A stretch of DNA of 64,000 nt from a phage: sequence record PZ379176.1; one strand, 5' to 3'. The notes under the pieces were generated by a model, which was not told where the DNA came from, made no database searches, and saw only the letters and a program-made list of their open reading frames with translations. This document shows positions 6,163-56,156 of this stretch, one piece after another (position 1 is the first letter of the stretch; the number at the start of each line of letters is the position of its first letter). The position numbers and the translations under genes are program-made.

Positions 6163-7062
6163 ATGGCTAAAATCTTTACTCTGGTTAACGAATCTGGTTT
6201 TAATGCTCTGGCTAACAATATCCGTAGCAATAATGCAGCGATCAAACAAGATGTTTCTAACTTCCTGTTAGGTCATTTGCAGCACTTTCGTAGCAACGGT
6301 AAGAAGTTAGATGTATTGCAGGCGGCGGTTGACTTCCTGTTAACCGAACGTTTCCGCGATATGGATGTTATTGCCACCGCGATCACTTTCTTAACTCCTA
6401 TCAAGTTTAACACTGATGCGTCAAATGGTCGTAAGAAGTGGATTAATCTGGAAGGTGAAGCGAAAGCTAAAGAAGATGCGAAAGAAGCGCAAATTAAAGC
6501 CAAAATGGAGCAAAACCGTGCCCGCTGGTCAAACGCTTTCGAAAACTTTGCATTAGGTCGTGCAATTGAAGTGGATAATCCTAACTTCTACAAAGGTTGC
6601 AATGACAACGTGGCGGCACACCTGCAAATTCCGGCGAAAAACAAGGAAGATTTTAATCAGGATATTTACGCTTTGGTTGAACGCTTGAATGCAATCCGTA
6701 TTGAAGCCAAATTACTGGCTGATGAGCGCAACGGCGCAACCAGCGATAACACTATCGCCCTGAGTGAAGAAGTTGGGAAGGTTAAAAAGTCCTTTGATTC
6801 ACTCATCAAGAAAATCACGGCCTCGACGGTAGCGATCTCGGATGATTATCTGATGAACGCATCAAGCAAGGAATTAGAATCACTCGATTCATACGCTGAT
6901 GAAATGGAAAAGACTGTTGCAGCTATGCAGGAGAAGTTAGAAAGTCTGCGCGGTCGTATCTCTTCAACGGTTGCTACCCGTACCGAACAAGCGGCGAAAG
7001 CAGAAGAGGAAGAAGTATTGCGTAAAGCGGCTGAAATTATGGCGGCACGTCAGGCGGCATAA
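6163..7062 (+). CDS. hypothetical protein, coiled-coil rich (about 300 aa)
   Basis: ORF track frame; ATG at 6163 with SD AAAGGTGA. Confidence 0.6.
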   Translation: MAKIFTLVNESGFNALANNIRSNNAAIKQDVSNFLLGHLQHFRSNGKKLDVLQAAVDFLLTERFRDMDVIATAITFLTPIKFNTDASNGRKKWINLEGEAKAKEDAKEAQIKAKMEQNRARWSNAFENFALGRAIEVDNPNFYKGCNDNVAAHLQIPAKNKEDFNQDIYALVERLNAIRIEAKLLADERNGATSDNTIALSEEVGKVKKSFDSLIKKITASTVAISDDYLMNASSKELESLDSYADEMEKTVAAMQEKLESLRGRISSTVATRTEQAAKAEEEEVLRKAAEIMAARQAA

Positions 7063-8492: not shown

Positions 8493-9305
8493 ATGAAAGC
8501 ATTTGCATTGTCAGCTATTCTAGTTTTATCTGCCATTAGTGCCCCATCCTTTGCTCATTCTGACAAATGCTCACACTCTAAACAGTGTGAAGTCCAGCAG
8601 GGGCCGAAAGGTGATAAAGGAGAACAGGGTATTCAAGGCGAACAAGGTCCGAAAGGTGACAAGGGTGATCGCGGAGAGCAGGGCTTAAAAGGTGATACTG
8701 GATCGGCTGGCATCAATGGTAAAGATGGCATCAATGGTAAAGATGGCATTGATGGTAAAGATGGCATTGATGGTAAAGATGGCATCAATGGTAAAGATGG
8801 CATCAATGGTAAAGATGGCATTGATGGTAAAGATGGCATTGATGGTAAAGATGGCGCTCAAGGTGAAAAAGGTGATTCTGGTGCAGATGGTAAGAAAGGC
8901 GAAACTGGCCTAACTGGTGCAGCAGGTTTGAATGGCGTTGACGGATTAAATGGCAAAAATGGTAAAGATGCAGATATGTCTGCCGTTAATGCTAACGCCA
9001 AATCTATCAAAGCTCTGGAACAATCCACCAACAAACGTTTTGCTTCTTTGCAAAAACAAGTAGACCGTAACCGTGATCATGCCTCTGCTGGTATTTCTGG
9101 CGTGGCTGCAATGGCTAACATCCCGCAAGTAAGTCAAGGATCTGCTTTCTCTGTTGGTGCTGGGGTAGGTGCTTACGATGGTGAATCTGCTCTTGCTATT
9201 GGTGTTAGTGCTCGTTTCAATGAAAACGTAGTAACTAAAGCATCAGTGGCAATGACTTCAGAGAGTGACGCTGTTCTGGGCGCTGGTGTAAGTTACGAGT
9301 GGTAA
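8493..9305 (+). CDS. secreted collagen-like repeat protein with YadA-like C-terminal anchor
   Basis: Signal-like N-terminus MKAFALSAILVLSAISAPSFA; long Gly-X-Y tract (GPKGDKGEQG...GINGKDGIDGKDG...); C-terminus ends GAGVSYEW, resembling trimeric-autotransporter anchors. Confidence 0.7.
   Translation: MKAFALSAILVLSAISAPSFAHSDKCSHSKQCEVQQGPKGDKGEQGIQGEQGPKGDKGDRGEQGLKGDTGSAGINGKDGINGKDGIDGKDGIDGKDGINGKDGINGKDGIDGKDGIDGKDGAQGEKGDSGADGKKGETGLTGAAGLNGVDGLNGKNGKDADMSAVNANAKSIKALEQSTNKRFASLQKQVDRNRDHASAGISGVAAMANIPQVSQGSAFSVGAGVGAYDGESALAIGVSARFNENVVTKASVAMTSESDAVLGAGVSYEW
8709..8852 (+). repeat. eight tandem 18-nt repeats (GGCAT[C/T][A/G]ATGGTAAAGAT) inside the collagen-like gene
   Basis: Direct reading: units alternate ATCAAT and ATTGAT in pairs, encoding GINGKD/GIDGKD. 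Confidence 0.9.
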
Positions 9306-9311
9306 GATAGT

Positions 9312-9338
9312 GCCTCTCCCGAAAGGGAGGGGTGTTTC
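9312..9338 (+). terminator. rho-independent terminator
   Basis: CCTCTCCC-gaaa-GGGAGGGG then TGTTTCT. Confidence 0.55.
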
Positions 9339-9415
9339 TATAAGCATCTTTTCGAGGGTGTTTATTGAAACAACAAAACAGGAGGTAGCAAGTTCTGATA
9401 ACAACGGCACAGCTA

Positions 9416-9805
9416 ATGTTGACATTGACTATTTATTATGAGGCAGGGAATCAGCCAACCGCATGTAAGGCTTTAGTTGCGGATACCGTGATAAATAGAA
9501 TGGCCCAACGAAAACTGACCGCTGAACAGGTGATAAGACAAAAGAACCAGTTTGAGTGGATTCCGGTACTATTAAAACAGGAGAAACCTTATAAACGTTA
9601 TGTAAAGCTGATTCGTGATAAAAATCCGATGACTAAGCAAGCCATTGGAGAAAGCGAGCGACTTGCTAAACGTGCCCTTAAGAAGAATTATGTTCCGCTG
9701 TACAGTGGGACTTACTTTCAGAGTAAGAGCGAAGGGGTGCCAAAATGGTATGCCAATCCTATGTATTGTGGTGATTTAGTGTTCGATAATAGCTCTAGGG
9801 AATAA
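9416..9805 (+). CDS. SleB/CwlJ-like cell-wall hydrolase domain protein
   Basis: Motif IYYEAGNQ...ACKALVADTVINRM...QFEW, as in the SleB-type hydrolase family; start uncertain. Confidence 0.5.
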   Translation: MLTLTIYYEAGNQPTACKALVADTVINRMAQRKLTAEQVIRQKNQFEWIPVLLKQEKPYKRYVKLIRDKNPMTKQAIGESERLAKRALKKNYVPLYSGTYFQSKSEGVPKWYANPMYCGDLVFDNSSRE

Positions 9806-10005
9806 TCACTAGTGCCAGATTTGACAAACTAAATTCCTTTATAAACCAACCACTTAGTAAATTTATTGAAAAAGATGGCAGTATTCTGGGACTATGGGTA
9901 ATGCTCTGTATATAGACCCTTTGAAAATTTCTTAGAAAATAAGTTTACTAAATATAACTTACTTAAATAATATTACTTTTAATCTCTGATAAAAGGGTAA
10001 ATAAT

Positions 10006-10302
10006 ATGACTTTAGAAGTATATAAATTCCTTTTTGTAAGCTGTTTAACTATCAGCGTTCTAGGATTTATTATTCTCAGAAACAAAGCAGCAAGCTGGGA
10101 GAGAATGTATAAATCCCTAGTTCGAGTGGATGAGATGTATAATGAGAAAGTTAAAGTAACACTTAACGATCTTATTATGCAAGTAGAGGACAGAAACAAG
10201 CGTCTTCAGAACCTCAACCACGAAGTGTTACGCCTTGCTCGTGCTAATGAAGACTTGCGAGTGGCTATTGCTAAACAGCAGGAGATTAACAATGAAGCAT
10301 GA
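10006..10302 (+). CDS. membrane-anchored coiled-coil protein
   Basis: N-terminal TM helix then heptad-like region. Confidence 0.5.
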   Translation: MTLEVYKFLFVSCLTISVLGFIILRNKAASWERMYKSLVRVDEMYNEKVKVTLNDLIMQVEDRNKRLQNLNHEVLRLARANEDLRVAIAKQQEINNEA

Positions 10303-10549
10303 TATTAATACAGCCCCTGTAGTCAAGCAACTGAAAGACCTGAAGGTGGGGAGTGTTTTTGAAACTGTTCCACCTAAAAATAAAATATATCTTACAGTAA
10401 AGCTAGATTCCTCAACCGTTTATTCAGCTAGTTGGAAGCCTGACGAAAGAGTAGTAGTAGATCTCACTTCGGATAGAATAACAATGTTGAGAAAAGATAC
10501 TGTTGTTCAGGTAGTTGATAATGCTCGACTTACCAATAAGGTGGATTAA
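10292..10549 (+). CDS. small paralog-family protein (member 1)
   Basis: About 80 aa; shared pattern L-x-x-L-K-x-G-[DS]-V-F with 11 other ORFs. Confidence 0.5.
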   Translation: MKHDINTAPVVKQLKDLKVGSVFETVPPKNKIYLTVKLDSSTVYSASWKPDERVVVDLTSDRITMLRKDTVVQVVDNARLTNKVD

Positions 10550-10551
10550 AG

Positions 10552-10788
10552 ATGAAAGTTAATATTAAATCCGATCGTACAATGCTTCGCTTAAATAACA
10601 TGAAGCCGGGCGTTCTATTTGAGCGTAAAGACTCTCTTTATATTAGAACCGACACACTATACGCAGATAACTATGTGAACTGTGTTGATGTGGTAACTGG
10701 AAAGCTCATGCCTTTTAAACGGGATGAAGTCTGCCAAGTACGTAGTGATCTTCACATAACCAACATAGAGGCTAAAGATGAAGATTGA
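10552..10788 (+). CDS. small paralog-family protein (member 2)
   Basis: Same family pattern; tightly packed. Confidence 0.5.
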   Translation: MKVNIKSDRTMLRLNNMKPGVLFERKDSLYIRTDTLYADNYVNCVDVVTGKLMPFKRDEVCQVRSDLHITNIEAKDED

Positions 10789-11029
10789 TCTTGAGATGAA
10801 AGCTAAAGAATTGTGTGTGGGTGATTTGAAACTTGGTGATGTATTCCAAGTTAAGGCAACATGTATTGATTATTACATGATCGTTCAGTTATATACACCA
10901 CATGTGTCAGAGACTGATCTTCGGAATGGTTGTGTAGTGCTCAGTTTAAGCACCAATCAAGTAATGAAGCTAGATTCAAACTTACCTGTTTCAGTTATCC
11001 ATGATGCAGTAATTACCAATCGGAAGTGA
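10778..11029 (+). CDS. small paralog-family protein (member 3)
   Basis: LKLGDVFQVK motif. Confidence 0.5.
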   Translation: MKIDLEMKAKELCVGDLKLGDVFQVKATCIDYYMIVQLYTPHVSETDLRNGCVVLSLSTNQVMKLDSNLPVSVIHDAVITNRK

Positions 11030-11244
11030 ATATGAACATTGAAAAGAAGGTTGTTGACGAGGCTGTTCAGTTACGATCTCTTGAAACACATGATGTATTT
11101 GTGTGGGGAGGCAGTCTGTTTCAGAAATCTGCTTATGCTGTAGAGGGCGGGGTTCGTTGTTTTAATATCTTCAACAATGAGATGCAAATCCTTCCTAACT
11201 TCGCTCATGTTAATAAACTTATCCACCTTTCTATATATCAATAA
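11026..11244 (+). CDS. small paralog-family protein (member 4)
   Basis: LETHDVFVWGG motif; ATGA overlap. Confidence 0.5.
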   Translation: MNMNIEKKVVDEAVQLRSLETHDVFVWGGSLFQKSAYAVEGGVRCFNIFNNEMQILPNFAHVNKLIHLSIYQ

Positions 11245-11254
11245 GGGCAATTAG

Positions 11255-11473
11255 ATGGAAATTAAAGTAGTTGATTATCCTAAATATGCAAATGCAGAGG
11301 ACGTTAAAGGTGGTGATGTTTTCTCTTATGATAAACGTTTCTGGCTGATGCTAGAAGATAAAACCCCTGATGGTTTGTGTAAGGCTGCTAACTTGAGCAG
11401 TGGTTCTGTTGAAGTCTTCGGTCTATCAACCACTGTTATGCCACGACCTGATCTGTGTTTATCCCAAAAGTAA
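11255..11473 (+). CDS. small paralog-family protein (member 5)
   Basis: VKGGDVFSYDKRFWL motif. Confidence 0.5.
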   Translation: MEIKVVDYPKYANAEDVKGGDVFSYDKRFWLMLEDKTPDGLCKAANLSSGSVEVFGLSTTVMPRPDLCLSQK

Positions 11474-11831
11474 CACCGACTTATAGCCCTTGTGTTTATC
11501 AGAGGGCTATGTGAGGGTGTTCCTCATTAACTTATTAATTCAGGCATATGCCACACCGCTAGGGAGAGCTTGCTCGAACATCCGGTGTTAGACTAAAACC
11601 TGTTAATTTTCGAAAGACTTTCCGATATGTAGGGGTACGTATTGGTTTGGGATTCAGGAGACTTCCTAGGGGTAGGAAGTCTTCACCAGTTGGAATAAGA
11701 GATAGCTCTAGAACCTGAACTCTTAGGCAGAGAAGGTCGGCAATGAGTACGCGGTCAGAATTAGCCTCCTGACTAGGGCTATCCCTTATATCAACTGGCA
11801 ATAATGCCTCCACTAACAAAGAGAGATAGGT

Positions 11832-11972
11832 ATGAAAGTATCAACCAAACGTATGAACCGCCCTGAACGTATGGATGCAGTAGCTAATGGTGCTCTGAAA
11901 CTGGAAGGCTTTTGGATTCATGCAATGTCAGCCATCCGTAACAAGCAAGGTAATTGGACGTATAACAGTTAA
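11832..11972 (+). CDS. hypothetical small protein (46 aa)
   Basis: ATG with SD-like GAGAGATAGG; followed by a terminator; below ORF-track size cut-off. Confidence 0.3.
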   Translation: MKVSTKRMNRPERMDAVANGALKLEGFWIHAMSAIRNKQGNWTYNS

Positions 11973-11984
11973 CAAATAAAGAGA

Positions 11985-12014
11985 GGCTGCCTTCGGGCGG
12001 CCTTTGTTGTTTTA
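11985..12014 (+). terminator. rho-independent terminator
   Basis: GGCTGCC-ttcg-GGCGGCC then TTTGTTGTTTT; same type as 41053. Confidence 0.6.
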
Positions 12015-12057
12015 ATTAAGGGACAACTCTTACTTAAACTAACAAGAGGAAGCTAAA

Positions 12058-12234
12058 ATGTCTAAGCAAACAATCAAACATACGCAATCTGGTTACTCTT
12101 ATGTCAACTCTCCTTGCTGCGGTGCTCGTATTAATCTGGTTAAGGAAGAGGTTCGTATCGTTCAGCGTGGCGCTACTGTTGTTCGTTCATGCTGTGTCTG
12201 TGGTAATGATATTTTTATCAAAGGTAAAGTATGA
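12058..12234 (+). CDS. small zinc-ribbon-like protein (58 aa)
   Basis: SD AAGAGGAAG; Cys pairs CC...CCVC; ATGA overlap with next gene. Confidence 0.4.
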   Translation: MSKQTIKHTQSGYSYVNSPCCGARINLVKEEVRIVQRGATVVRSCCVCGNDIFIKGKV

Positions 12235-12455
12235 TTATCGTTCGCTCTGAGCCTAAAGATAACACTTTTGGTAGCCTCCGTAATGGTGATGTGTTCTCTC
12301 TAGAGATAGATGGGGATACAAAACCTCCTTTATATATGAAGGTTATGCACAGACATGCTATCTGTATAAATAATCCTGAAACAAGATTTACGTTTGACAG
12401 AAGTTGTCCTGTCAAATTTTATCAAGCTACCCTAAACGTTAGGAGAGTAGGATGA
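12231..12455 (+). CDS. small paralog-family protein (member 6)
   Basis: LRNGDVFSLE motif. Confidence 0.5.
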   Translation: MIIVRSEPKDNTFGSLRNGDVFSLEIDGDTKPPLYMKVMHRHAICINNPETRFTFDRSCPVKFYQATLNVRRVG

Positions 12456-12703
12456 AAAACTTCCAAGCTGCACCAATAACTAAAGTGATTGCAGTTAATG
12501 ATGTGATGATGGCTGTTCCTCTGAACACTCGTTATATTGCAATTGACAAGATGGGATATGTATGGGCTTGGAAGATCAAGCCTAGTTATAACGCACTGTT
12601 TGATGAGTTTGTTTGTACTGGTACTTACAGTCCTACATTCTTGGGTTTGTTTAGTGAGTTTGATGGTCAGTATAAAATCATCACACTCCCTGCTTGTGCT
12701 TGA
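12452..12703 (+). CDS. small hypothetical protein (possible divergent family member)
   Basis: ORF track; ATGA overlap. Confidence 0.45.
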   Translation: MKNFQAAPITKVIAVNDVMMAVPLNTRYIAIDKMGYVWAWKIKPSYNALFDEFVCTGTYSPTFLGLFSEFDGQYKIITLPACA

Positions 12704-12710
12704 GGTTATT

Positions 12711-12875
12711 ATGTTCAAGTGGTTTAAACGTTTCTTCCATCTCCATGATTGGGAGACAATAAAAGAAGTTCGTTTACACATATATAATGAGATTGGTCAA
12801 ATAGAAGACACAGGTACTCGTTATATACTTCGATGTAAAACATGTGGTCATATCACCAAGCGAGATATGATCTAA
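12711..12875 (+). CDS. hypothetical small protein (54 aa) with C-terminal CxxC
   Basis: ATG at 12711 after GAGG; track ORF 12537 starts in an overlapped frame. Confidence 0.35.
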   Translation: MFKWFKRFFHLHDWETIKEVRLHIYNEIGQIEDTGTRYILRCKTCGHITKRDMI

Positions 12876-12883
12876 ATAATTCT

Positions 12884-12959
12884 GCGCTCTTAGCTCAATG
12901 GATAGAGCAGTAGCCTTCTAAGCTATTGGTTACAGGTTCGAGTCCTGTAGGGCGCACCA
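12884..12959 (+). tRNA. tRNA-Arg (anticodon UCU), CCA encoded
   Basis: Manual cloverleaf: acceptor GCGCTCT/AGGGCGC, D-arm GCTC/GAGC, anticodon loop CTTCTAA, T-arm ACAGG-TTCGAGT-CCTGT, discriminator A + CCA. Confidence 0.85.
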
Positions 12960-13053
12960 CATTTAGGGCTAGTATGGGTGCGGCACCAGAGTTAGTGTAT
13001 CCCTGTTGAGGCAAGTGCTTTTATAACAGTGGGAATTACTTTCTTAGTGAGCT

Positions 13054-13080
13054 TCTGGTTCGATTCCAGATAGTCCACCA
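13054..13080 (+). other. tRNA-like T-arm plus 3-prime acceptor-like sequence without a foldable 5-prime half
   Basis: TCTGG-TTCGATT-CCAGA then TAGTCCACCA; no matching acceptor, D or anticodon arm found upstream. Confidence 0.25.
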
Positions 13081-13099
13081 AATCTAATAGGAGGTAATT

Positions 13100-13399
13100 A
13101 TGAGTTGGGGTGGTGTAATATCCTTAATCTGTATCTTCCTTGTCTGCATAGCCCTTACAGGCTGCGTACAGAGCCGTCCTGATGGATGGTGTGCAGTAGC
13201 AGTGGAAGGTGTTTGTGTTTCTCGCTGGTATAAGGGTGAGAAGATTCCTTCTGGTGAAATTGATATGCGATGGAACGGAGCAACCTGTTCTAATGCTAAC
13301 CCTTCTATCAACGAAGAGAAGTCTACGCCAGACAATGTTGTGATTGATACAGCGTTGTGGTGTGGTGGCTCTGTAACAACAACCGGTAAGGAGTGGTGA
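13100..13399 (+). CDS. predicted lipoprotein
   Basis: SD AGGAGG; signal peptide ending in lipobox-like LTGC (MSWGGVISLICIFLVCIALTGCVQS). Confidence 0.6.
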   Translation: MSWGGVISLICIFLVCIALTGCVQSRPDGWCAVAVEGVCVSRWYKGEKIPSGEIDMRWNGATCSNANPSINEEKSTPDNVVIDTALWCGGSVTTTGKEW

Positions 13400-13400
13400 T

Positions 13401-13598
13401 ATGAATTACACATCCACAAAGGTGTTAATTGATTCAATTAATAGCTCCTCAGAAGCTGTACAGGAGCGTTTAATACAAGATGTTAGCAATGACATTAAGT
13501 TCTTTGTTAAGAGCCGCCTGTTAGGTTCTAAGGCTTATTACAGAGCTAAAGCAGAGCTTACAAAGAGGGTGTTTCTTTTACATGGTTTGGTATATTAA
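13401..13598 (+). CDS. hypothetical small protein
   Basis: ORF track; starts 2 nt after previous stop. Confidence 0.4.
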   Translation: MNYTSTKVLIDSINSSSEAVQERLIQDVSNDIKFFVKSRLLGSKAYYRAKAELTKRVFLLHGLVY

Positions 13599-13607
13599 GG
13601 AACTTAT

Positions 13608-13829
13608 ATGAAACTAGACTCTAAGCAGTCACTTAAAACCGTTGAGCTGTCCACGCTGCCAAACGGAAGTATTTTTGGTCATGATAAACACTTCTGGATT
13701 AAAACAGACATCATAGACGATGGATATATCACCTGTGTCAATCTTTGGAACGGTTCAGTGGATGGTTATCGCCCTAGCGCAAAGGTAGTCCCTCAGCCTG
13801 ATGCTAAGGCTGTAGGTTTAGTTTACTAA
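13608..13829 (+). CDS. small paralog-family protein (member 7)
   Basis: LPNGSIFGHDKHFWI motif. Confidence 0.5.
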   Translation: MKLDSKQSLKTVELSTLPNGSIFGHDKHFWIKTDIIDDGYITCVNLWNGSVDGYRPSAKVVPQPDAKAVGLVY

Positions 13830-13838
13830 GGAGTTCAT

Positions 13839-14012
13839 ATGAGCTGTTATGGTGGCGGTGAAGTGTGTGATGACGACGACATGGAATCCAATGGTACATG
13901 CCCTGACTGTGGGTGTGAGACATTTGATGGAGTGTCAGTATACCCTGCCTGTAGTTACTCACCAGTGATCTGTAAAACATGTGGAGATCAACCTTGTGAC
14001 CAGTCTTGTTAG
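13839..14012 (+). CDS. small Cys-rich protein (57 aa)
   Basis: SD AAGGAG; 11 Cys; below ORF-track cut-off. Confidence 0.35.
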   Translation: MSCYGGGEVCDDDDMESNGTCPDCGCETFDGVSVYPACSYSPVICKTCGDQPCDQSC

Positions 14013-14013
14013 T

Positions 14014-14238
14014 ATGTTAATAGCCTATCTGATAGGATCAGTAGTATCAGGTGTTCTGATTAAGATTATAGATGTTAAAGGTAATCAGTGTTTCAGAGGT
14101 TGGGATGGTGAGCCAGACCTCGGAAAGATAGCAGCTATGGTTTTCTTGTGGCCTATTATTGCTGTACTATTTATAGCACTCGTATCATGGGCTGCTCTTT
14201 GGGATTTCATCCTTCCTAACAAAAAGTATGAGGACTAA
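14014..14238 (+). CDS. small membrane protein (two hydrophobic helices)
   Basis: ORF track frame; ATG at 14014. Confidence 0.45.
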   Translation: MLIAYLIGSVVSGVLIKIIDVKGNQCFRGWDGEPDLGKIAAMVFLWPIIAVLFIALVSWAALWDFILPNKKYED

Positions 14239-14728
14239 TGACTGAAGAATTTTTAAAGTGGTTTGGTGATACCTTCAAAGAGTATCTATTCTCTCCAGAA
14301 GACTTTGAAGAACTGAAAACCTACACTTGGTTGGCTTGGAGAGATAGCCGACGAGAGATGAATAAGTAATATCGTGAAGGATTCTTACGAGAGTCCTTTG
14401 AGATAGGACTTCAGATCTCCTATCAAACTAACATTCATGTAACTAGCCCATAAGGGCGTTACCCTTTAATAACCCAGCCCACTAAGGGGGCGGGAGTTTA
14501 GTGCTGGATTAGCATAACGCTTATTCCTACAAAGGCAACCGATTGTTAGGTCTTACATGCAATATTAATTAATAGGATAAGGGAGGATTCGTCCCCTCCC
14601 CTATTCATAAACTATTAGGAGAGTACATTAGCTGATTAGCTGTGGAAGGTAGGCCGATATCTACAGCGTGGCCCAGAGCTAGTGTACTCCCCAATAACTT
14701 TAGGGTAAATGTGGAACAACCTTTTAAT

Positions 14729-14874
14729 TACAGGTATAGCTTATGGGACTCAGTAATGCAGAGTCTACGGTAAAGCAGTCGCCCGTGGTCGAATGACCGT
14801 ATGCCCATTGGATGCATTCCTTTGGTGATGGCTAGGGAGTCCGAGCGTAGGTTCGAATCCTACACCTGTAACCA
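14729..14874 (+). tRNA. tRNA-like element with canonical T-arm and ACCA end but about 70 nt of extra internal sequence
   Basis: T-arm GTAGG-TTCGAAT-CCTAC (14847-14863), 3-prime ACCTGTA+A+CCA; only complementary 5-prime strand TACAGGT is at 14729-14735; anticodon not resolved. Confidence 0.35.
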
Positions 14875-14902
14875 AATTGAATAATAGCTAATTGGAGGAT
14901 GT

Positions 14903-15214
14903 ATGAAAGCACGAAGAACTATATGGACTCCGATGCAGATTGAAAATCTTCGGAGACTAATCAAAGAGTACTCGGTTCAAGAAGTTGCTCAGATTATGAA
15001 TGTAACGGAGAATGCAGTTAACGCAGCTTGTACTAAATTCGGAATATCAAGAGCTTCAATCCGAGTTAAATGGTCTGAAGAAGAAGACCAGTTCCTTATC
15101 CGTAATGCTGGGTTCATGTCTATTCAGAGAATGGCTGACATGCTCGGTAGAAGTTATGCTGCTGTACAGAACAGAGCATGTATGCACCTTAACATTAGCC
15201 TCAAACTTAAATAG
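14903..15214 (+). CDS. DNA-binding protein with two helix-turn-helix-like repeats
   Basis: Two W-x-E-E-[LD] repeats each followed by HTH-like segment. Confidence 0.45.
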   Translation: MKARRTIWTPMQIENLRRLIKEYSVQEVAQIMNVTENAVNAACTKFGISRASIRVKWSEEEDQFLIRNAGFMSIQRMADMLGRSYAAVQNRACMHLNISLKLK

Positions 15215-15222
15215 GAATCAAT

Positions 15223-15477
15223 ATGAAAGTTAACGAATTGAACAAAACTATCAAGACTGTGAAACTCCACACTCTGAAGAAGGGCGATACCTTCCGGCTG
15301 GAAGAGAACGGTCCAATTCATATGGTCTGTACTGCGGCATCTACTAATTGGGTAGAAGTTGCACGAGATCGAGTCGTGTGTGTCAGACTGGAAGATGGAC
15401 ACTTAAGTGGCCCCGTTGAGGGCATCTCTGTTATTCCTGTTAAGGTTGAAGCTAACGTTATTAAGGATTCTAAATGA
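15223..15477 (+). CDS. small paralog-family protein (member 8)
   Basis: LKKGDTFRLEENG motif. Confidence 0.5.
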   Translation: MKVNELNKTIKTVKLHTLKKGDTFRLEENGPIHMVCTAASTNWVEVARDRVVCVRLEDGHLSGPVEGISVIPVKVEANVIKDSK

Positions 15478-15725
15478 AGATTACCCACAAGAAAGAAGAA
15501 GTGACCACGATTGATCTCAACTCCCTCCCCAGCGGAGCAGTGTTTAAATTCCCTGAGAGTGCTACTCTCTATGTTAAAGGGTCTGTGTCTGAAAGTCCTA
15601 ATGTAACCGTTAACTCTGATCGAACAATTACTCTTCGTCTATCCGATGGTAACGTAACAGCACCTTCTATCTGGTGCCGAGTTGTTCCTGTATCAGCAGA
15701 ACTTTTGGTGGATAATACGCAATGA
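15474..15725 (+). CDS. small paralog-family protein (member 9)
   Basis: LPSGAVFKFPE motif; ATGA overlap. Confidence 0.5.
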   Translation: MKITHKKEEVTTIDLNSLPSGAVFKFPESATLYVKGSVSESPNVTVNSDRTITLRLSDGNVTAPSIWCRVVPVSAELLVDNTQ

Positions 15726-15967
15726 AAATCATCCCAAAGAAAAAGGATAATACGGTACGATTGGAAACAATCATTCCCGGAAACCCTTTCGTGGTTCAGA
15801 ACGGAAGTGCCTCTCCTCAGTATTACATGAGGGTTGAAAATGCTTCTGGTAACATCCGTATAGCCAGTGGTTGGGTTCCTGTGGTAAACCTTTCCACAGG
15901 TGTGTTATCTGTTAAAGGTCTTGATGATCAGGTAGAAATGATTCGTATGTCAGTGGTTCAGGAGTAG
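15722..15967 (+). CDS. small paralog-family protein (member 10)
   Basis: IPGNPFVVQNG motif; overlap. Confidence 0.5.
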   Translation: MKIIPKKKDNTVRLETIIPGNPFVVQNGSASPQYYMRVENASGNIRIASGWVPVVNLSTGVLSVKGLDDQVEMIRMSVVQE

Positions 15968-16221
15968 TGCATATGAGCATTATTAACATTAAAGTTAAAG
16001 ACAAAGAGGAAAAAATCCTCCGCGTCAGAGATCTAAATATGTCAGATGTGTTCACTCTCCAAGAGTGCCAAAATCAAAAGGTTTATATGATGACAGCTAA
16101 AAGCAGGGGTTGTCAACCTGCTGGAGCTGTTAACCTAGGCACTGGAGAACTACGTGTCATCTCTGGTGATATGGTTGTTGGTGAGAAGTTTATTAAGGCT
16201 GAAATCATCTTAACTTCGTAG
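15967..16221 (+). CDS. small paralog-family protein (member 11)
   Basis: LNMSDVFTLQE motif. Confidence 0.5.
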   Translation: MHMSIINIKVKDKEEKILRVRDLNMSDVFTLQECQNQKVYMMTAKSRGCQPAGAVNLGTGELRVISGDMVVGEKFIKAEIILTS

Positions 16222-16453
16222 GGAAAACAAATGAGACGTAAAGCATATTCTTATGACGATATGATTAACCAGAAAGGCTTCGGTCAACGACAGCCTGACG
16301 GTTCAATTATCTGGTTCGTAAACGGACAGAAAAAGGTAGCTAAATAAGCCCTCTTCTCTCCTCCTTTTAGTACTATGACGCCTCTCTGTGGGCGGCCCGA
16401 TTTGCGTAGGGAATTCCCTCTACGCAGCCATAATTTTTTAAGGAATTTCCCCT

Positions 16454-16687
16454 ATGTCTAAAGTAAGCGCAATCGATGCAATCCGTCAACCGTTTCAGTT
16501 CCAATCCAAATCAACCCAAACCTTCAGCGAACCTAAGCAAATTCGCTTGGGTGGTACAGAGAAGACTGTGTTTGATCTGGCTAAAAACAAGAGCGTTACC
16601 GTAGTTGATGGTGGCACTCTGGTTAACGTTTCTCATCGCATCCGCACTGGCAAAACTGCCAAAGATCGTGCTAAGAAAGGTGAGTGA
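16454..16687 (+). CDS. hypothetical protein (77 aa)
   Basis: ORF track; follows hairpin and repeated 17-mer. Confidence 0.45.
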   Translation: MSKVSAIDAIRQPFQFQSKSTQTFSEPKQIRLGGTEKTVFDLAKNKSVTVVDGGTLVNVSHRIRTGKTAKDRAKKGE

Positions 16688-16902
16688 TGATAACACTTGT
16701 GTCTGTAGTTTACAGATTACACTATCGCCTAGATAAAGGAAAATCTTATAAATGCAAGAGTAAGACAGGGAATCTATGCTCTGTAGAGAACAACTCTGGT
16801 CAATGGGTGAATGTTCCTTGTTGCTGGTTCAGGAAAGATTTGACTAGCAAAGAGATTGACGAAATTCTTAGTGATGATTTTGTAAAATCAGGTGATTTTT
16901 AG
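16684..16902 (+). CDS. hypothetical small Cys-containing protein
   Basis: ORF track; ATGA overlap. Confidence 0.4.
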   Translation: MMITLVSVVYRLHYRLDKGKSYKCKSKTGNLCSVENNSGQWVNVPCCWFRKDLTSKEIDEILSDDFVKSGDF

Positions 16903-17137
16903 TTGTAGTAACGCCTATAGCCTTCTTCGGAGGGCTATGTGAGTTATTCTGACTCAACTAACCTAATCTTAATATATTTCCCGTATGGGGCCGATGCTAG
17001 GGAGAGGAACATTCCTCGAACATCCGTCGGATAGATATTTTAAGAGCAGGTTATCCACAGATATTGGGTAATATCTTTTTGTATTTAAAGCTTGACTCTT
17101 TTCGGAGAGTCCTTTTTTAAATTCAACGAGAGGAAAT

Positions 17138-17290
17138 ATGTCTAAATTAGATTTAAAACTGCTAGCAGCAGCGGTAGTGATTTGTGCACTAGCACTGGTA
17201 ACGCAGAGAACATCTGGATTTATTCAGTGTTTCTTTTCTGGGCAATCCACTTATCAGTGGGTTATTGACGAGTGTAAACAACAGGAGTAA
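17138..17290 (+). CDS. small membrane or secreted peptide (50 aa)
   Basis: SD GAGAGGAAA; hydrophobic N-terminus; below track cut-off. Confidence 0.3.
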   Translation: MSKLDLKLLAAAVVICALALVTQRTSGFIQCFFSGQSTYQWVIDECKQQE

Positions 17291-17292
17291 GT

Positions 17293-55103: not shown

Positions 55104-56156
55104 TTAGTTTGCTCCAAATGCCCCTAAGACACCACCTAAGATATTACTACCTGCTGTGGATAACCAGTTAGACTGACCTCTCTGTTGAGAAAGATTAGAA
55201 CCACCAATCATAGGACCAGCCATTCCAGATTGCCCACCTGAGTTGTTATAGGAACTCCAAGCATTCTGAGTCTGTTGATTAGGAGAGAAAGCACCCATAC
55301 GACCTGCAATACCTAATCCAGTGATACCAGCACCTAGGAGCTGTTGTCCAGTATTAACCCCCGGAGCAGCATTCTTAATCGTGTACCCAGCCATTGGGCT
55401 TACACTATTTAATACATTAAGTTGGTTGTTAAGCTGATTCCACCCATACTGTTGAGAGCCAATAGCGTTCTGCCAATTAATATCAGCTTGAGCTTGGGCT
55501 TGTTGCTGTTGTAGATTACCAGCCATGAGTTGATTCTGGATAGCTTGTTGAGTTGCCTGAACACCTTGAGCACCAAGATTGAGATTCTGTCCAGCCAATC
55601 CTGACTGAGCACCAAGTAAGCCCCTCTGGAAGTTTTGGTCTTGTTGAAGAGCACTGATTCCCATATTCTTGCCACTGATAGTACGAGCTAAGTTTGTATT
55701 AGCACTGTTCAGAGCAGCACCTTGAGCAGCAGCTCTACGGAGAGAGCCTGAATCAGAACCATTTCCGAGGGATACATTGGAAGCTGCCTTACTAGTCGCT
55801 TGAGCAAGAGCTGAGTTATTCAATCCTTTACTAAAGTTATTAACACCATCAGCAGTTAGACCACCACCATTGACAATATTCTGATACTGCTGTGCAAGAG
55901 AATTTAATTGGTCCAACCCTTGCTGTGTACGAGGCGTGTACATATCAGCCAATTGCTTCTGAGTAGTAGAAGCTGCTAAGTTGTTCAGAGCACCCTGTTG
56001 GTTGCCATTAAACCCAGCCAGTTGTTGGGAGATGAATCCCGGATCGTTGTTCTGCATATTCTGAGCATTAGCAACAATCTGCTTCAGCAGGGCATCAACC
56101 TGAGAGGAAGGGGCCACTGTGGTTTTGCTAGAAGCTGATTTTCCAAATAAAGACAT
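55104..56156 (-). CDS. Gln/Asn/Gly-rich low-complexity virion protein (paralog 2)
   Basis: Similar composition and Gly-rich C-terminus. Confidence 0.5.
   Translation of the reverse strand: MSLFGKSASSKTTVAPSSQVDALLKQIVANAQNMQNNDPGFISQQLAGFNGNQQGALNNLAASTTQKQLADMYTPRTQQGLDQLNSLAQQYQNIVNGGGLTADGVNNFSKGLNNSALAQATSKAASNVSLGNGSDSGSLRRAAAQGAALNSANTNLARTISGKNMGISALQQDQNFQRGLLGAQSGLAGQNLNLGAQGVQATQQAIQNQLMAGNLQQQQAQAQADINWQNAIGSQQYGWNQLNNQLNVLNSVSPMAGYTIKNAAPGVNTGQQLLGAGITGLGIAGRMGAFSPNQQTQNAWSSYNNSGGQSGMAGPMIGGSNLSQQRGQSNWLSTAGSNILGGVLGAFGAN

Follow-up and report, generated by a model that had tools for sequence, protein, structure and literature searches.

A new covarying RNA family with two paralogous copies in the early-gene region of a phiEco32-like phage

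The 64,000-nucleotide stretch of DNA analysed here (PZ379176.1, referred to as the window) is that of a phiEco32-like phage (Kuravirus), and its early-gene region carries two copies, A and B, of a structured RNA module. The copies are paralogues, and the module is a new, previously undescribed RNA family that most likely serves the control of transcription read-through or RNA processing. Copy A lies between the homologues of phi32_113 and phi32_112 and copy B between those of phi32_91 and phi32_90; both copies and all ORFs that flank them are on the + strand. A sequence-only reading of the window had placed each copy between the stop of an upstream gene and the next gene, and this placement as well as the strings quoted for both copies were verified at their coordinates. 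Its extent of about 110 nt proved too small, as copy A is part of a conserved region of ~360 nt and copy B of one of ~235 nt (Table 1). The sequences GAGGGCTATGTGAG, GCTAGGGAGAG and CTCGAACATCCG each have two exact occurrences in the 64-kb window, at A and B only, and when mismatches were allowed the matches elsewhere in the window stayed at chance level. Common blocks were also visible in the pairwise alignment of A and B. A covariance model built only from the B-type copies of 10 phages recovered copy A in the window with 40.5 bits (E=7.2e-9), and with filters switched off the next-best match in the window after the copies had an E-value of 0.94.

Table 1. Features of the two module copies and their surroundings in the window
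Feature	Position	Strand	Sequence or content	Support
Conserved structured non-coding region, copy A as 5' third	11474-11831		~360 nt	
Copy A H1	11482..11510	+	hairpin UAUAGCCCUU-loop-AGAGGGCUAU	10 pairs, one compensatory
Copy A H2	11511..11527	+	GUGAGG-GUGUU-CCUCAU	covariation among copies
Copy A AU-rich linker	11528..11542	+	UAACUUAUUAAUUCA	
Copy A H3	11543..11552	+	GGC-AUAU-GCC (3 bp)	covariation
Copy A core	11553..11592	+	H4 ACACCG/CGGUGU and H5 GAG-CUUG-CUC	
Structured leader 3' of copy A	11593..11831	+	multi-helix	covariation, 49 pairs, 7 compensatory; z -4.59
gp112 homologue	11832..11972	+	46-aa basic protein (KRMNRP..NGALK)	
T1, strong intrinsic terminator	11982..12015	+	AGAGGCUGCC-UUCG-GGCGGCCUUU and U-run	
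Conserved unit with copy B, 3' end an intrinsic terminator	16903-17118		~235 nt	
Copy B H1	16916..16938	+	UAUAGCCUUC-UUCG-GAGGGCUAU	covariation
Copy B H2	16939..16956	+	UGAGUUA-UUC-UGACUCA	covariation
Copy B linker, 5' strand of P1	16957..16979	+	ACUAACCUAAUCUUAAUAUAUUU	
Copy B H3	16980..16989	+	CCC-GUAU-GGG	covariation
Copy B core	16991..17035	+	H4 CCGAUG/CGUCGG and H5 GAGGA-ACAU-UCCUC	
Copy B P1 3' strand	17032..17056	+	..AGAUAUUUUAAGAGCAGGUUA	z -4.0 to -5.3, six lineages
Double DnaA box	17040..17059		TTAAGAGCA-gg-TTATCCACA	sequence match
T3, intrinsic terminator	17094..17118	+	GACUCU-UUUCGG-AGAGUC and CUUUUUU	

In all copies the first helix, H1, starts 8-12 nt past the upstream stop codon and is followed by H2, an AU-rich linker, H3, H4 with an internal loop inside, and H5. 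For copy A this distance is 9 nt from the UAA of the gp113 homologue, in a conserved context (GUAAC..UAUAGCC). The strong first hairpin followed by TGTGAG had been recognised by the sequence-only reading, which overlooked H2, formed by TGTGAG and the letters after it, and H3; the conserved blocks around an inner hairpin had likewise been seen, without the outer helix H4 that encloses them. The inner hairpin does keep its pairing despite sequence change, but the form proposed for copy A (GAGC/GCTC with a 2-nt loop) had to be corrected to three base pairs with a tetraloop, GAG-CUUG-CUC, next to GAGGA-ACAU-UCCUC in copy B. Both cores contain the internal loop CUAGGGA / GAACAUC and are trailed by UAGA in A and AUAGA in B. 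A downstream partner was sought for the linker of copy A and none was significant (z about 0), and this copy has no terminator of its own, no P1 and no DnaA box. The leader behind it contains a long hairpin resembling H1 (AGAUAGCUCUA...UAGGGCUAUC) and reaches the RBS of the gp112 homologue. P1 is found in copy B only, as an irregular helix of ~18-20 bp with small loops that forms the closing stem of a three-way junction containing H3 and H4/H5.

Compensatory change had been put forward as the signature of a conserved RNA structure, and this was borne out by double changes in 7 of the 14 core pairs. Across 30 distinct sequences, 97.8% of the cells in the core were paired, compared with 31-48% in slid controls, and covariation was present in all five helices H1-H5. 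The pair types in H3 were CG:15/GC:15 and CG:22/GC:8, while H2 covaries between A and B (UGAGUUA/UGACUCA), in B of Suseptimavirus (UGAGCUA/UGGCUCA) and in phage 7-11 (GAGUUA/UAACUC). Further copies with covariation, on which the sequence-only reading had made its proposal depend, were found in more than 100 related phage genomes. G-U pairs occupied 22 cells in the core and U-G pairs were also found in H1; these U-G pairs point to the + strand as the RNA form. Folding of copy B yielded -73.3 kcal/mol (z -3.98) for the + strand versus -56.8 kcal/mol (z -2.68) for the - strand.

The 7x7 internal loop enclosed by H4 (5' CUAGGGN, 3' RAACAUC) was invariant at 12 of its 14 positions in the 30 distinct sequences, and the linker is the least conserved sequence of the module. 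As compensatory changes let the helices drift but the loop letters stay fixed, the loop is probably a docking site, and its trans-acting partner would be one present in infections of both E. coli and Salmonella. Candidates for this partner are a conserved phage protein and the transcription machinery of the host. An invariant loop with covarying stems is also typical of protein-binding operators, and T4 RegA and the MS2 coat protein would be models for a translational repressor/operator pair. It is, however, unlikely that the module is an operator by which a phage RNA-binding protein such as gp112 controls the translation or stability of gp112 (A) and of gp90 onward (B). Copy A does precede gp112, whose SD has a predicted pairing with the leader start, and this basic protein is conserved in both phage families, where the gp112 family and the module co-occur. 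Nevertheless, the next start codon is 240 nt from the core in A and 110 nt in B, which is too distant for direct occlusion, a terminator sits between B and gp90, and the neighbouring proteins have no recognisable RNA-binding domain.

Copy B is conserved out to Salmonella phage 7-11 and copy A was found in Gordonclarkvirinae only; B is the ancestral copy, common to the 7-11-like Salmonella phages, and A is the duplicate. Few early proteins are shared between this phage and 7-11, and one of them is gp112, whose 7-11 counterpart gp135 is present without an A-type copy or a T1-like terminator behind it. Relatives differ greatly in the segment that separates A from B. Recombination between the two copies is indicated by Suseptimavirus, in which H1 of B has become homogenised with that of A. 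When Rfam 15 was run over the window, only tRNA-Arg reached the gathering score, and permissive scans of both regions returned nothing below E=0.68 and no match overlapping the module cores. A tRNA, tmRNA or tRNA-like identity was rejected, with ARAGORN finding only the tRNA-Arg at 12884-12959 and no tRNA match in either copy region. A literature search on the module found no description of it.

The order of elements is structured leader, gp112 and T1 after copy A, and DnaA double box and T3 after copy B. T1 closes the gp112 mini-cluster and is conserved in phiEco32 and SU7 as well as in the window. T3 is located 19 nt ahead of the gp90 start codon, is kept in the Salmonella phages 7-11 and pSal, thus in two phage families, and carries a terminator annotation in phage 7-11. 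The MFE structure and every near-optimal fold contain T3, whether the 5' strand of P1 is included or not, and no competing helix was found, so that a transcriptional riboswitch was rejected. Strong terminators are also present upstream of A (SU7 locus 5039 and 6325-6550). Promoter scans directly behind T1 and T3 identified no promoter-like site. The sole candidate in B, CTGACT-18-TATATT (16949-16978), is a weak 9/12 match of Kuravirus that Suseptimavirus and 7-11 have lost, and copy A has none. The module shares with T4-type PeSL (promoter-early plus stem-loop) cassettes that repeated intergenic elements, with a stem-loop first, bracket hyper-variable small early genes, but it is much larger and has an invariant internal loop; a mobile promoter cassette of this type was rejected for lack of a conserved sigma70 early promoter. 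The early genes 69-125 are reported to depend on sigma70 promoters located far upstream in the vicinity of genes 120/121 and 125 (PMC4281155), and phage 7-11 has two validated early promoters, both at the genome end, and no middle promoters (PMC8948821). With so few and distant early promoters, long transcription that crosses terminators is required.

Terminators in line with no conserved promoter behind them, together with same-strand early genes downstream, led us to propose that the module is a nut/put-like cis-acting signal for read-through (processive antitermination). This reading, added to the 5' UTR regulator, processing site and small RNA suggested by the sequence-only reading, is ranked first of the functional options, if only tentatively. 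The nascent module would exert a cis effect on elongating RNA polymerase and would permit or set read-through of T1 after A and of T3 after B, with the small basic gp112 as a candidate N-like partner, while DnaA bound to the double box by B may add a host-state input just ahead of T3. The layout of A, leader, small basic protein and terminator mirrors lambda nutL-N-tL1, and that of gene, B and terminator mirrors cro-nutR-tR1. Lambda boxB has a 5-bp stem and a conserved purine-rich (GNRA-like) pentaloop that is bound by the ARM of N. The H1 stem (GCCCU/AGGGC) resembles it and is conserved, but its loop ranges from UUCG to 10 nt with no conserved pentaloop, and the most conserved part of the module, the H4/H5 loop, is without a counterpart in nut. 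A search of the module for boxA (CGCUCUUA / UGCUCUUUAACAA) gave CCUCAUUAAC (A) and ACUCAACUAAC (B) as nearest strings; GCUCUU is absent and CUC lies inside H2. The gp112 protein has basic stretches (KRMNRP / RRNAEKR-like), and comparison with Pfam, NCBIfam and PDB gave no match and no N homology, N proteins being too divergent for sequence tests; no Q homologue was detected either.

In phage HK022 the nascent put RNA binds the zinc-binding domain of RNAP beta' and, with no protein involved, suppresses terminators in cis. The HK022 putL and putR sites are two multi-bulged stem-loop RNAs of ~70 nt in the early operons, whose cis effect on RNAP reaches over more than 10 kb, with no dedicated protein strictly needed (PMC9378689). 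They serve as an analogue in that both systems have two paralogous early-operon copies of 70-110 nt with multiple helices and conserved bulges or loops upstream of terminators, in phages that use the host RNAP. Sequence similarity was not detectable, and put forms two long stems in a V shape, whereas the module has five short helices. Moreover, the put sites lie shortly behind two different promoters, whereas A and B have the same direction and are far from the mapped early promoters. They may share one transcript, on which a put- or N-type modification persisting from A would make B redundant. Further points against read-through are that the transcription units are inferred only, that the terminators upstream of A mean that A is not the sole solution, that 7-11 keeps gp135 without A-type copy and T1-like terminator, and that the terminators may just be leaky.

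The post-stop position and the AU-rich single strand suit a processing site equally, and it is possible, if doubtful, that the module punctuates mRNA processing and stability. An endonuclease cut in the polycistronic early RNA, by RNase E in the AU-rich linker or possibly by RNase III in P1 of B, would set differential stability of the neighbouring gene blocks, with H1/H2 left upstream as a 3' exonuclease block and H3-H5 downstream as a protective 5' structure. The linker does lie between stable hairpins, and P1 of B is long and irregular. The T7 early RNase III sites (R0.3-R1.3) give neighbouring gene blocks differential stability in this way; they are single, structurally conserved hairpins of ~20 bp, about two helical turns of mostly paired RNA, with conserved internal loops, and in this podophage they are likewise repeated in intergenic positions right behind the ends of early ORFs. 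For phage 7-11, a primer-extension end located ahead of the sigma gene was ascribed to processing or to RT stalling at a stem-loop (PMC8948821). However, the 9-11 bp of H4/H5 are too few for RNase III and the long helix P1 is missing in A, 12 invariant unpaired nucleotides are not needed by protective hairpins, and the poor conservation of the linker leaves no conserved cleavage motif.

The double DnaA box is next to B only and outside the repeated module; only the B flank has a consensus box TTATCCACA spaced 2-3 bp from a second one. Positions 17038-17079 are identical in 36 of 42 nt, in antisense, to the leader of E. coli nrdD, and the match ends 2 nt before the nrdD SD. The phage site tTTAAGAGCAggTTATCCACAg differs from the nrdD site tTTAAGAACAggTTATCCACAg by one base and has the same 2-bp spacing and box orientation, but it is opposite relative to transcription and also encodes the 3' strand of P1. 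The nrdD double box is bound by DnaA in vivo, as seen by ChIP-seq (PMC11317965), and comparable double boxes are those of datA, DARS2 and the oriC R4 type. A role of B, and possibly of A, as an sRNA, either stand-alone or derived from a 3'-UTR, that is released from the early transcript, ends at T3 and acts in trans, possibly on host nrdD mRNA, is quite unlikely. The antisense identity, the weak promoter-like site in Kuravirus and the Hfq-type architecture of the B end, an intrinsic terminator with a U-tail after U-rich sequence, would fit such an RNA, but the antisense stretch is mostly sequestered in P1, the promoter-like site is not kept outside Kuravirus, A has neither a terminator of its own nor a match in the host genome, and a DnaA-binding DNA site is the simpler account of the host match.

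That the repeats act as DNA, be it as replication origin, as recombination hot spot bounding a variable cassette or as protein sites, with RNA folding incidental, is extremely unlikely. The host-type double box of B is followed by an AT-rich stretch, and the variable A-B interval and the H1 homogenisation would be in line with such a role; five covarying helices and frequent G-U pairs (on the opposite strand these would be A-C mismatches) are nonetheless unexpected for duplex-DNA sites, A has no DnaA box, and the GC skew, as weak evidence, has no inflection near either copy. It is also very unlikely that B is a dual-use DNA/RNA checkpoint, at which the same 20 bp would be both a high-affinity DnaA dimer site copied from the nrdD leader and, in the transcript, the helix that closes a put-like antiterminator RNA. 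DnaA occupancy, falling as phage genomes titrate DnaA, would then decide module folding and the crossing of T3 into the delayed-early genes, and the amplified sites would derepress host nucleotide-synthesis genes. If true, this would be a new viral coupling of a gene-expression timer to the host replication initiator.

Positions 9000-19000 of the window matched Escherichia phage SkaterBoy_Bas90 (98.5%) and phiEco32 (94.4%), both on the reverse strand of those records. The window was therefore assigned to Kuravirus (Gordonclarkvirinae) and both copies of the element to the early-gene region; all ORFs around them lie on the window + strand. The sequence-only reading had described two intergenic copies of a structured element, each with a strong hairpin, a 'TGTGAG' string and two conserved blocks enclosing an internal hairpin. 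The strings that it quoted were all present at their positions, and GAGGGCTATGTGAG, GCTAGGGAGAG and CTCGAACATCCG occur exactly twice each in the 64 kb, with mismatch-tolerant matches elsewhere at chance level. A covariance model, R1, was seeded with ten B-type cores only, so that copy A contributed nothing to it. Searching the 64-kb window with R1 (filters off) gave 98.7 bits for copy B and 40.5 bits (E=7.2e-9) for copy A and revealed no third copy, the next match having E=0.94; thus there are exactly two copies in the window, and A was recognised without input to the model. While the element itself was verified, its anatomy is richer than had been described, comprising seven parts with five helices (H1-H5), and the conserved blocks, which are real, in fact make up the opposing sides of a 7x7 internal loop that separates H4 from H5. 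The analysis establishes two copies, on the + strand, of a five-helix RNA module whose internal loop is invariant; the copies directly follow the ends of ORFs and precede conserved in-line terminators, and any mechanism is an inference from these features.

Positions and composition of the RNA module and of neighbouring features (window coordinates unless a locus is named)
Feature	Position	Description
Copy A	11482-11592	between phi32_113 and phi32_112 (phiEco32 coordinates)
Copy B	16916-17035	between phi32_91 and phi32_90 (phiEco32 coordinates)
Module part 1		conserved string GUAAC(A/G)YY, usually holds the stop codon of the upstream ORF
Module part 2, H1		8-10-bp hairpin UAUAGCCYU...AGGGCUAU, loop variable
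Module part 3, H2		4-7-bp hairpin, takes in the 'TGTGAG' of the sequence-only reading
Module part 4, linker		AU-rich, contains UAAC
Module part 5, H3		3-bp hairpin with RUAU loop
Module part 6, H4		6-bp helix, surrounds both conserved blocks
Module part 7, H5		the previously described internal hairpin, then UAGA
Leader	11593-11831	240 nt from copy A to the gp112 start codon
gp112 family	11832-11972; L009 42846-43025 (-)	46-59-aa basic protein (46 aa in the window), invariant KRMNRP..NGALK
T1	11982-12015	strong intrinsic terminator after gp112, sometimes with gp111 between; conserved in the window, phiEco32 and SU7
T2	16402-16427	strong in-line intrinsic terminator inside the early gene array
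T3	17094-17118	intrinsic terminator ~60 nt after copy B, its end 19 nt short of the gp90 start codon
Host-like stretch	17038-17079	3' strand of helix P1 plus the next 20 nt
DnaA double box	17040-17059	tTTAAGAGCAggTTATCCACAg
Conserved non-coding region	14370-14612	~240 nt between gp101 and gp100 homologues
tRNA-like RNA	14730-14873	~144 nt
ACUAAC	11812, 12038, 14427, 16957	in four early intergenic regions, each time behind a hairpin or terminator

The internal loop reads CUAGGGN on its 5' side and RAACAUC on its 3' side, and 12 of its 14 positions are invariant across all 30 sequences. The two variable positions (A34/G49) are occupied by A/G, A/A or C/A and never by C/G; with these combinations, a kink-turn or sarcin-ricin loop, judged by eye, was unsupported. 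RNAalifold recovered H1, H3, H4 and H5 from 15 A and B sequences of nine phages, with compensatory changes in 8 of 24 pairs. In the R1-aligned set (38 matches, 30 distinct sequences), which is fitted to the model and hence biased toward structure, standard pairs filled 97.8% of cells, as compared with 31-48% when partners were slid by 1-3 columns; double changes affected 7 of 14 pairs, and the observed covariation score was reached by none of 500 shuffles. The RNAalifold result, obtained from a MAFFT-only alignment, is concordant. The earlier claim of an RNA structure conserved by compensatory change is upheld by these sequences. H2 covaries as well: its strands are UGAGG/CCUCA in A, whereas in B they are UGAGUUA/UGACUCA for Kuravirus, UGAGCUA/UGGCUCA for Suseptimavirus and, for the Salmonella phage 7-11, GAGUUA/UAACUC around a loop with a 7-nt insertion.

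Frequent U-G pairs were observed (one H4 position has them in 19 of the 30 sequences, and H1 has several), and since these would be A-C mismatches on the opposite strand, they count toward an RNA of the + strand. Copy B folds at -73.3 kcal/mol (z -3.98) on the + strand versus -56.8 kcal/mol (z -2.68) on the - strand, and the gap is smaller for the A region (-123.1 versus -115.9 kcal/mol). Together with the gene orientation, the U-G pairs and fold energies point to the + strand RNA as the functional molecule; a role of the module at the DNA level is given very little credence.

It is well supported that the module is a genuine RNA family, absent from Rfam and, within the literature searched, undescribed. 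Neither Rfam (gathering and permissive thresholds) nor ARAGORN produced a match to it, and it is unmentioned in the searchable literature on phiEco32, 7-11, SU10, SU7 and the BASEL Gordonclarkvirinae. The A-type sequence was detected in 99 phage records, every one from Escherichia or Shigella Gordonclarkvirinae, and the B region in 104 records, six of which are Salmonella phages of the 7-11 group (69-74% identity). No A-type copy was found in 7-11 or pSal-SNUABM-01, both of which carry B only. Exact-pattern scans of IMG/VR and metagenomes yielded the same two phage groups only, plus chance matches in coding or high-GC DNA, and the module was absent, with filters off, from a third related group (shared COOH-NH2 ligase, 59% identity) and from 16 remoter loci. 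As B occurs in both phage groups and A in one, B is the ancestral copy and A a duplicate that belongs to the Gordonclarkvirinae lineage. The H1 of B is homogenised with that of A in Suseptimavirus (L004, L005 and L006, e.g. L004 12714-12747; 34 nt, 94%), which is not so in Kuravirus, and A and B thus still exchange sequence by gene conversion or recombination. In phage EcoN5 (L008), a tandem duplication of gp92-gp91-B-gp90-gp89 has given rise to two identical B copies (13660-13896 and 15178-15414).

Copy A forms the first third of a non-coding region of ~360 nt that is conserved between Kuravirus, Nieuwekanaalvirus and Suseptimavirus and has no similarity to the host genome. The leader downstream of it adopts a covarying multi-helix fold (49 pairs, 7 compensatory) with a long H1-like hairpin (AGAUAGCUCUA...UAGGGCUAUC), in which Kuravirus has a 58-nt insertion as compared with Suseptimavirus. 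The leader stops at the gp112 RBS, and a pairing between the gp112 SD and the leader start is predicted. The gp112 family is among the very few small early proteins common to Gordonclarkvirinae and 7-11-like phages. No family or structure match was obtained for gp112, and its candidacy as an RNA-binding partner is speculative; that the module serves as a protein operator is considered unlikely. The nine flanking proteins are all PHROG 'unknown' and have no Pfam or NCBIfam match, and no homology was found between gp113 and gp91, the 72-aa proteins encoded upstream of the two copies.

Phages of the phiEco32 type are abundant, are candidates for therapy and provide a model of sigma-factor takeover. 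For the passage of host RNA polymerase over the numerous in-line terminators in the 25-55 kb early regions of these phages, no mechanism is known to us. For phiEco32 and SU10, the sigma70 early promoters are reported to lie far upstream (near genes 120/121 and 125), and genes 69-125 are assigned to the early class (PMC4281155); it follows that T1, T2 and T3 all have to be crossed by host RNA polymerase. T3 is kept as far as 7-11, in whose record the depositors annotate it as a terminator. Scans revealed no promoter-like site after T1 or T3, and T2 likewise has no recognisable promoter behind it. A conserved internal promoter was rejected, the single weak candidate inside B being confined to Kuravirus. 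The lack of a recognisable promoter behind T1 and T2 implies read-through or antitermination. That the module is released as a terminated sRNA is judged very unlikely, and for a riboswitch-type switch involving T3 no antiterminator pairing was found.

Lambda nutL/nutR with N and HK022 putL/putR are paired paralogous structured RNAs of early operons that act in cis on the polymerase (PMC9378689). As these are the closest known solutions and the layouts are alike (A-leader-small basic protein-T1 resembles lambda nutL-N-tL1, and gene-B-T3 resembles cro-nutR-tR1), a nut/put-like signal for terminator read-through is ranked first among the possible functions, if tentatively, and the invariant loop would be a candidate docking site where read-through must occur. 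Its probability is kept low because both copies point the same way and may share one transcript, other strong terminators precede A, the module has neither a boxA nor a conserved boxB loop, gp112 lacks a recognisable family, and 7-11 has neither A nor a T1 after its gp112 homologue. A role in transcript processing or stability, held to be only slightly less likely, would account for a location just behind stop codons and for the order hairpin-linker-hairpin but leaves the invariant loop unaccounted for.

All B lineages share a long helix, P1, formed between the linker (CUAACCUAAUCUU...) and the sequence following H4 (...AAGAGCAGGUUA); P1 closes a three-way junction around H3 and H4/H5. This helix is unique to B, a P1-type helix in copy A being not significant. 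The P1 duplex energy ranges from -12 to -16 kcal/mol (z -4.0 to -5.3 versus shuffles, six lineages), and its distal part compensates, with UCUUAA/UUAAGA in Kuravirus versus UCUUUUUA/UAAAGAGA in 7-11. The host-like stretch has a single-place match in 5,423 of 5,426 complete E. coli genomes, namely the leader directly upstream of nrdD (36 of 42 nt, antisense to nrdD); Enterobacteriaceae conserve the core CTGTGGATAACCTGTT in their nrdD leaders. This nrdD-leader site is one of 16 DnaA-bound ChIP-seq regions and is given as the double DnaA box tTTAAGAACAggTTATCCACAg (PMC11317965). The phage double box differs from the host nrdD site by one base within 20 bp and is conserved in all Gordonclarkvirinae, and 7-11-like phages likewise retain the strong box; in a set of 50,697 phage records, the nrdD-type DnaA sequence is confined to this phage group.

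The match runs past the DnaA consensus into Escherichia-specific flanks. E. coli phages score best with E. coli (31, as compared with 25 for Salmonella and 27 for Citrobacter), and Salmonella-type phages do not discriminate between hosts, so that a tracking of the host by the flanking sequence is suggestive only. The Salmonella nrdD leader was taken from AGRM01000005.1 (L162), a 501-kb Salmonella enterica subsp. houtenae chromosomal contig filed among phages. Binding of DnaA to the phage DNA at this stretch is the simplest reading; a function as antisense RNA is less likely, since P1 sequesters most of the stretch. The double box is part of the surroundings of B and not of the repeated module. 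No GC-skew sign of a replication origin was detected, and the only other perfect TTATCCACA in the window is located at 55155-55163 (- strand).

Further structured RNAs were noted between the two copies. The conserved non-coding region, found in all relatives compared at 76-98% identity, contains two invariant 5' hairpins followed by ACUAAC as well as several compensatory helices, and terminates in a G-rich hairpin; Rfam gave no match to it, and no host (E. coli) similarity was found for 14370-14903. The tRNA-like RNA is an insertion that, among the loci compared, was found in one metagenome contig only (L047). It combines a 7-8-bp acceptor-like stem (TACAGGT/ACCTGTA, then ACCA) with a canonical T-arm (GTAGG-TTCGAAT-CCTAC; partial match to RF00005, 14.8 bits), has several extra hairpins between the two and GGCTAGGGAG just 5' of the T-arm, and is not called by ARAGORN. 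In two of the four early intergenic regions with ACUAAC, the motif stands directly upstream of the RBS (ACUAACAA(A)GAGRG); window-wide it is not enriched (22 observed versus 18.5 expected).

Cis-acting structured RNAs in phage early operons are already known as a kind of element; what is new here is the fold, together with its invariant loop and the joining of one copy to a DnaA double box of host type. The module adds a well-supported new family to the catalogue of phage structured RNAs. With a putative docking loop that is invariant and placed where read-through is needed, it provides a concrete, mutable candidate for the crossing of early terminators, and if it does not act in read-through, it would be a processing signal that sets the architecture of early transcripts. 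The nrdD-like DnaA site further suggests that these phages may bind or titrate the replication initiator of their host.
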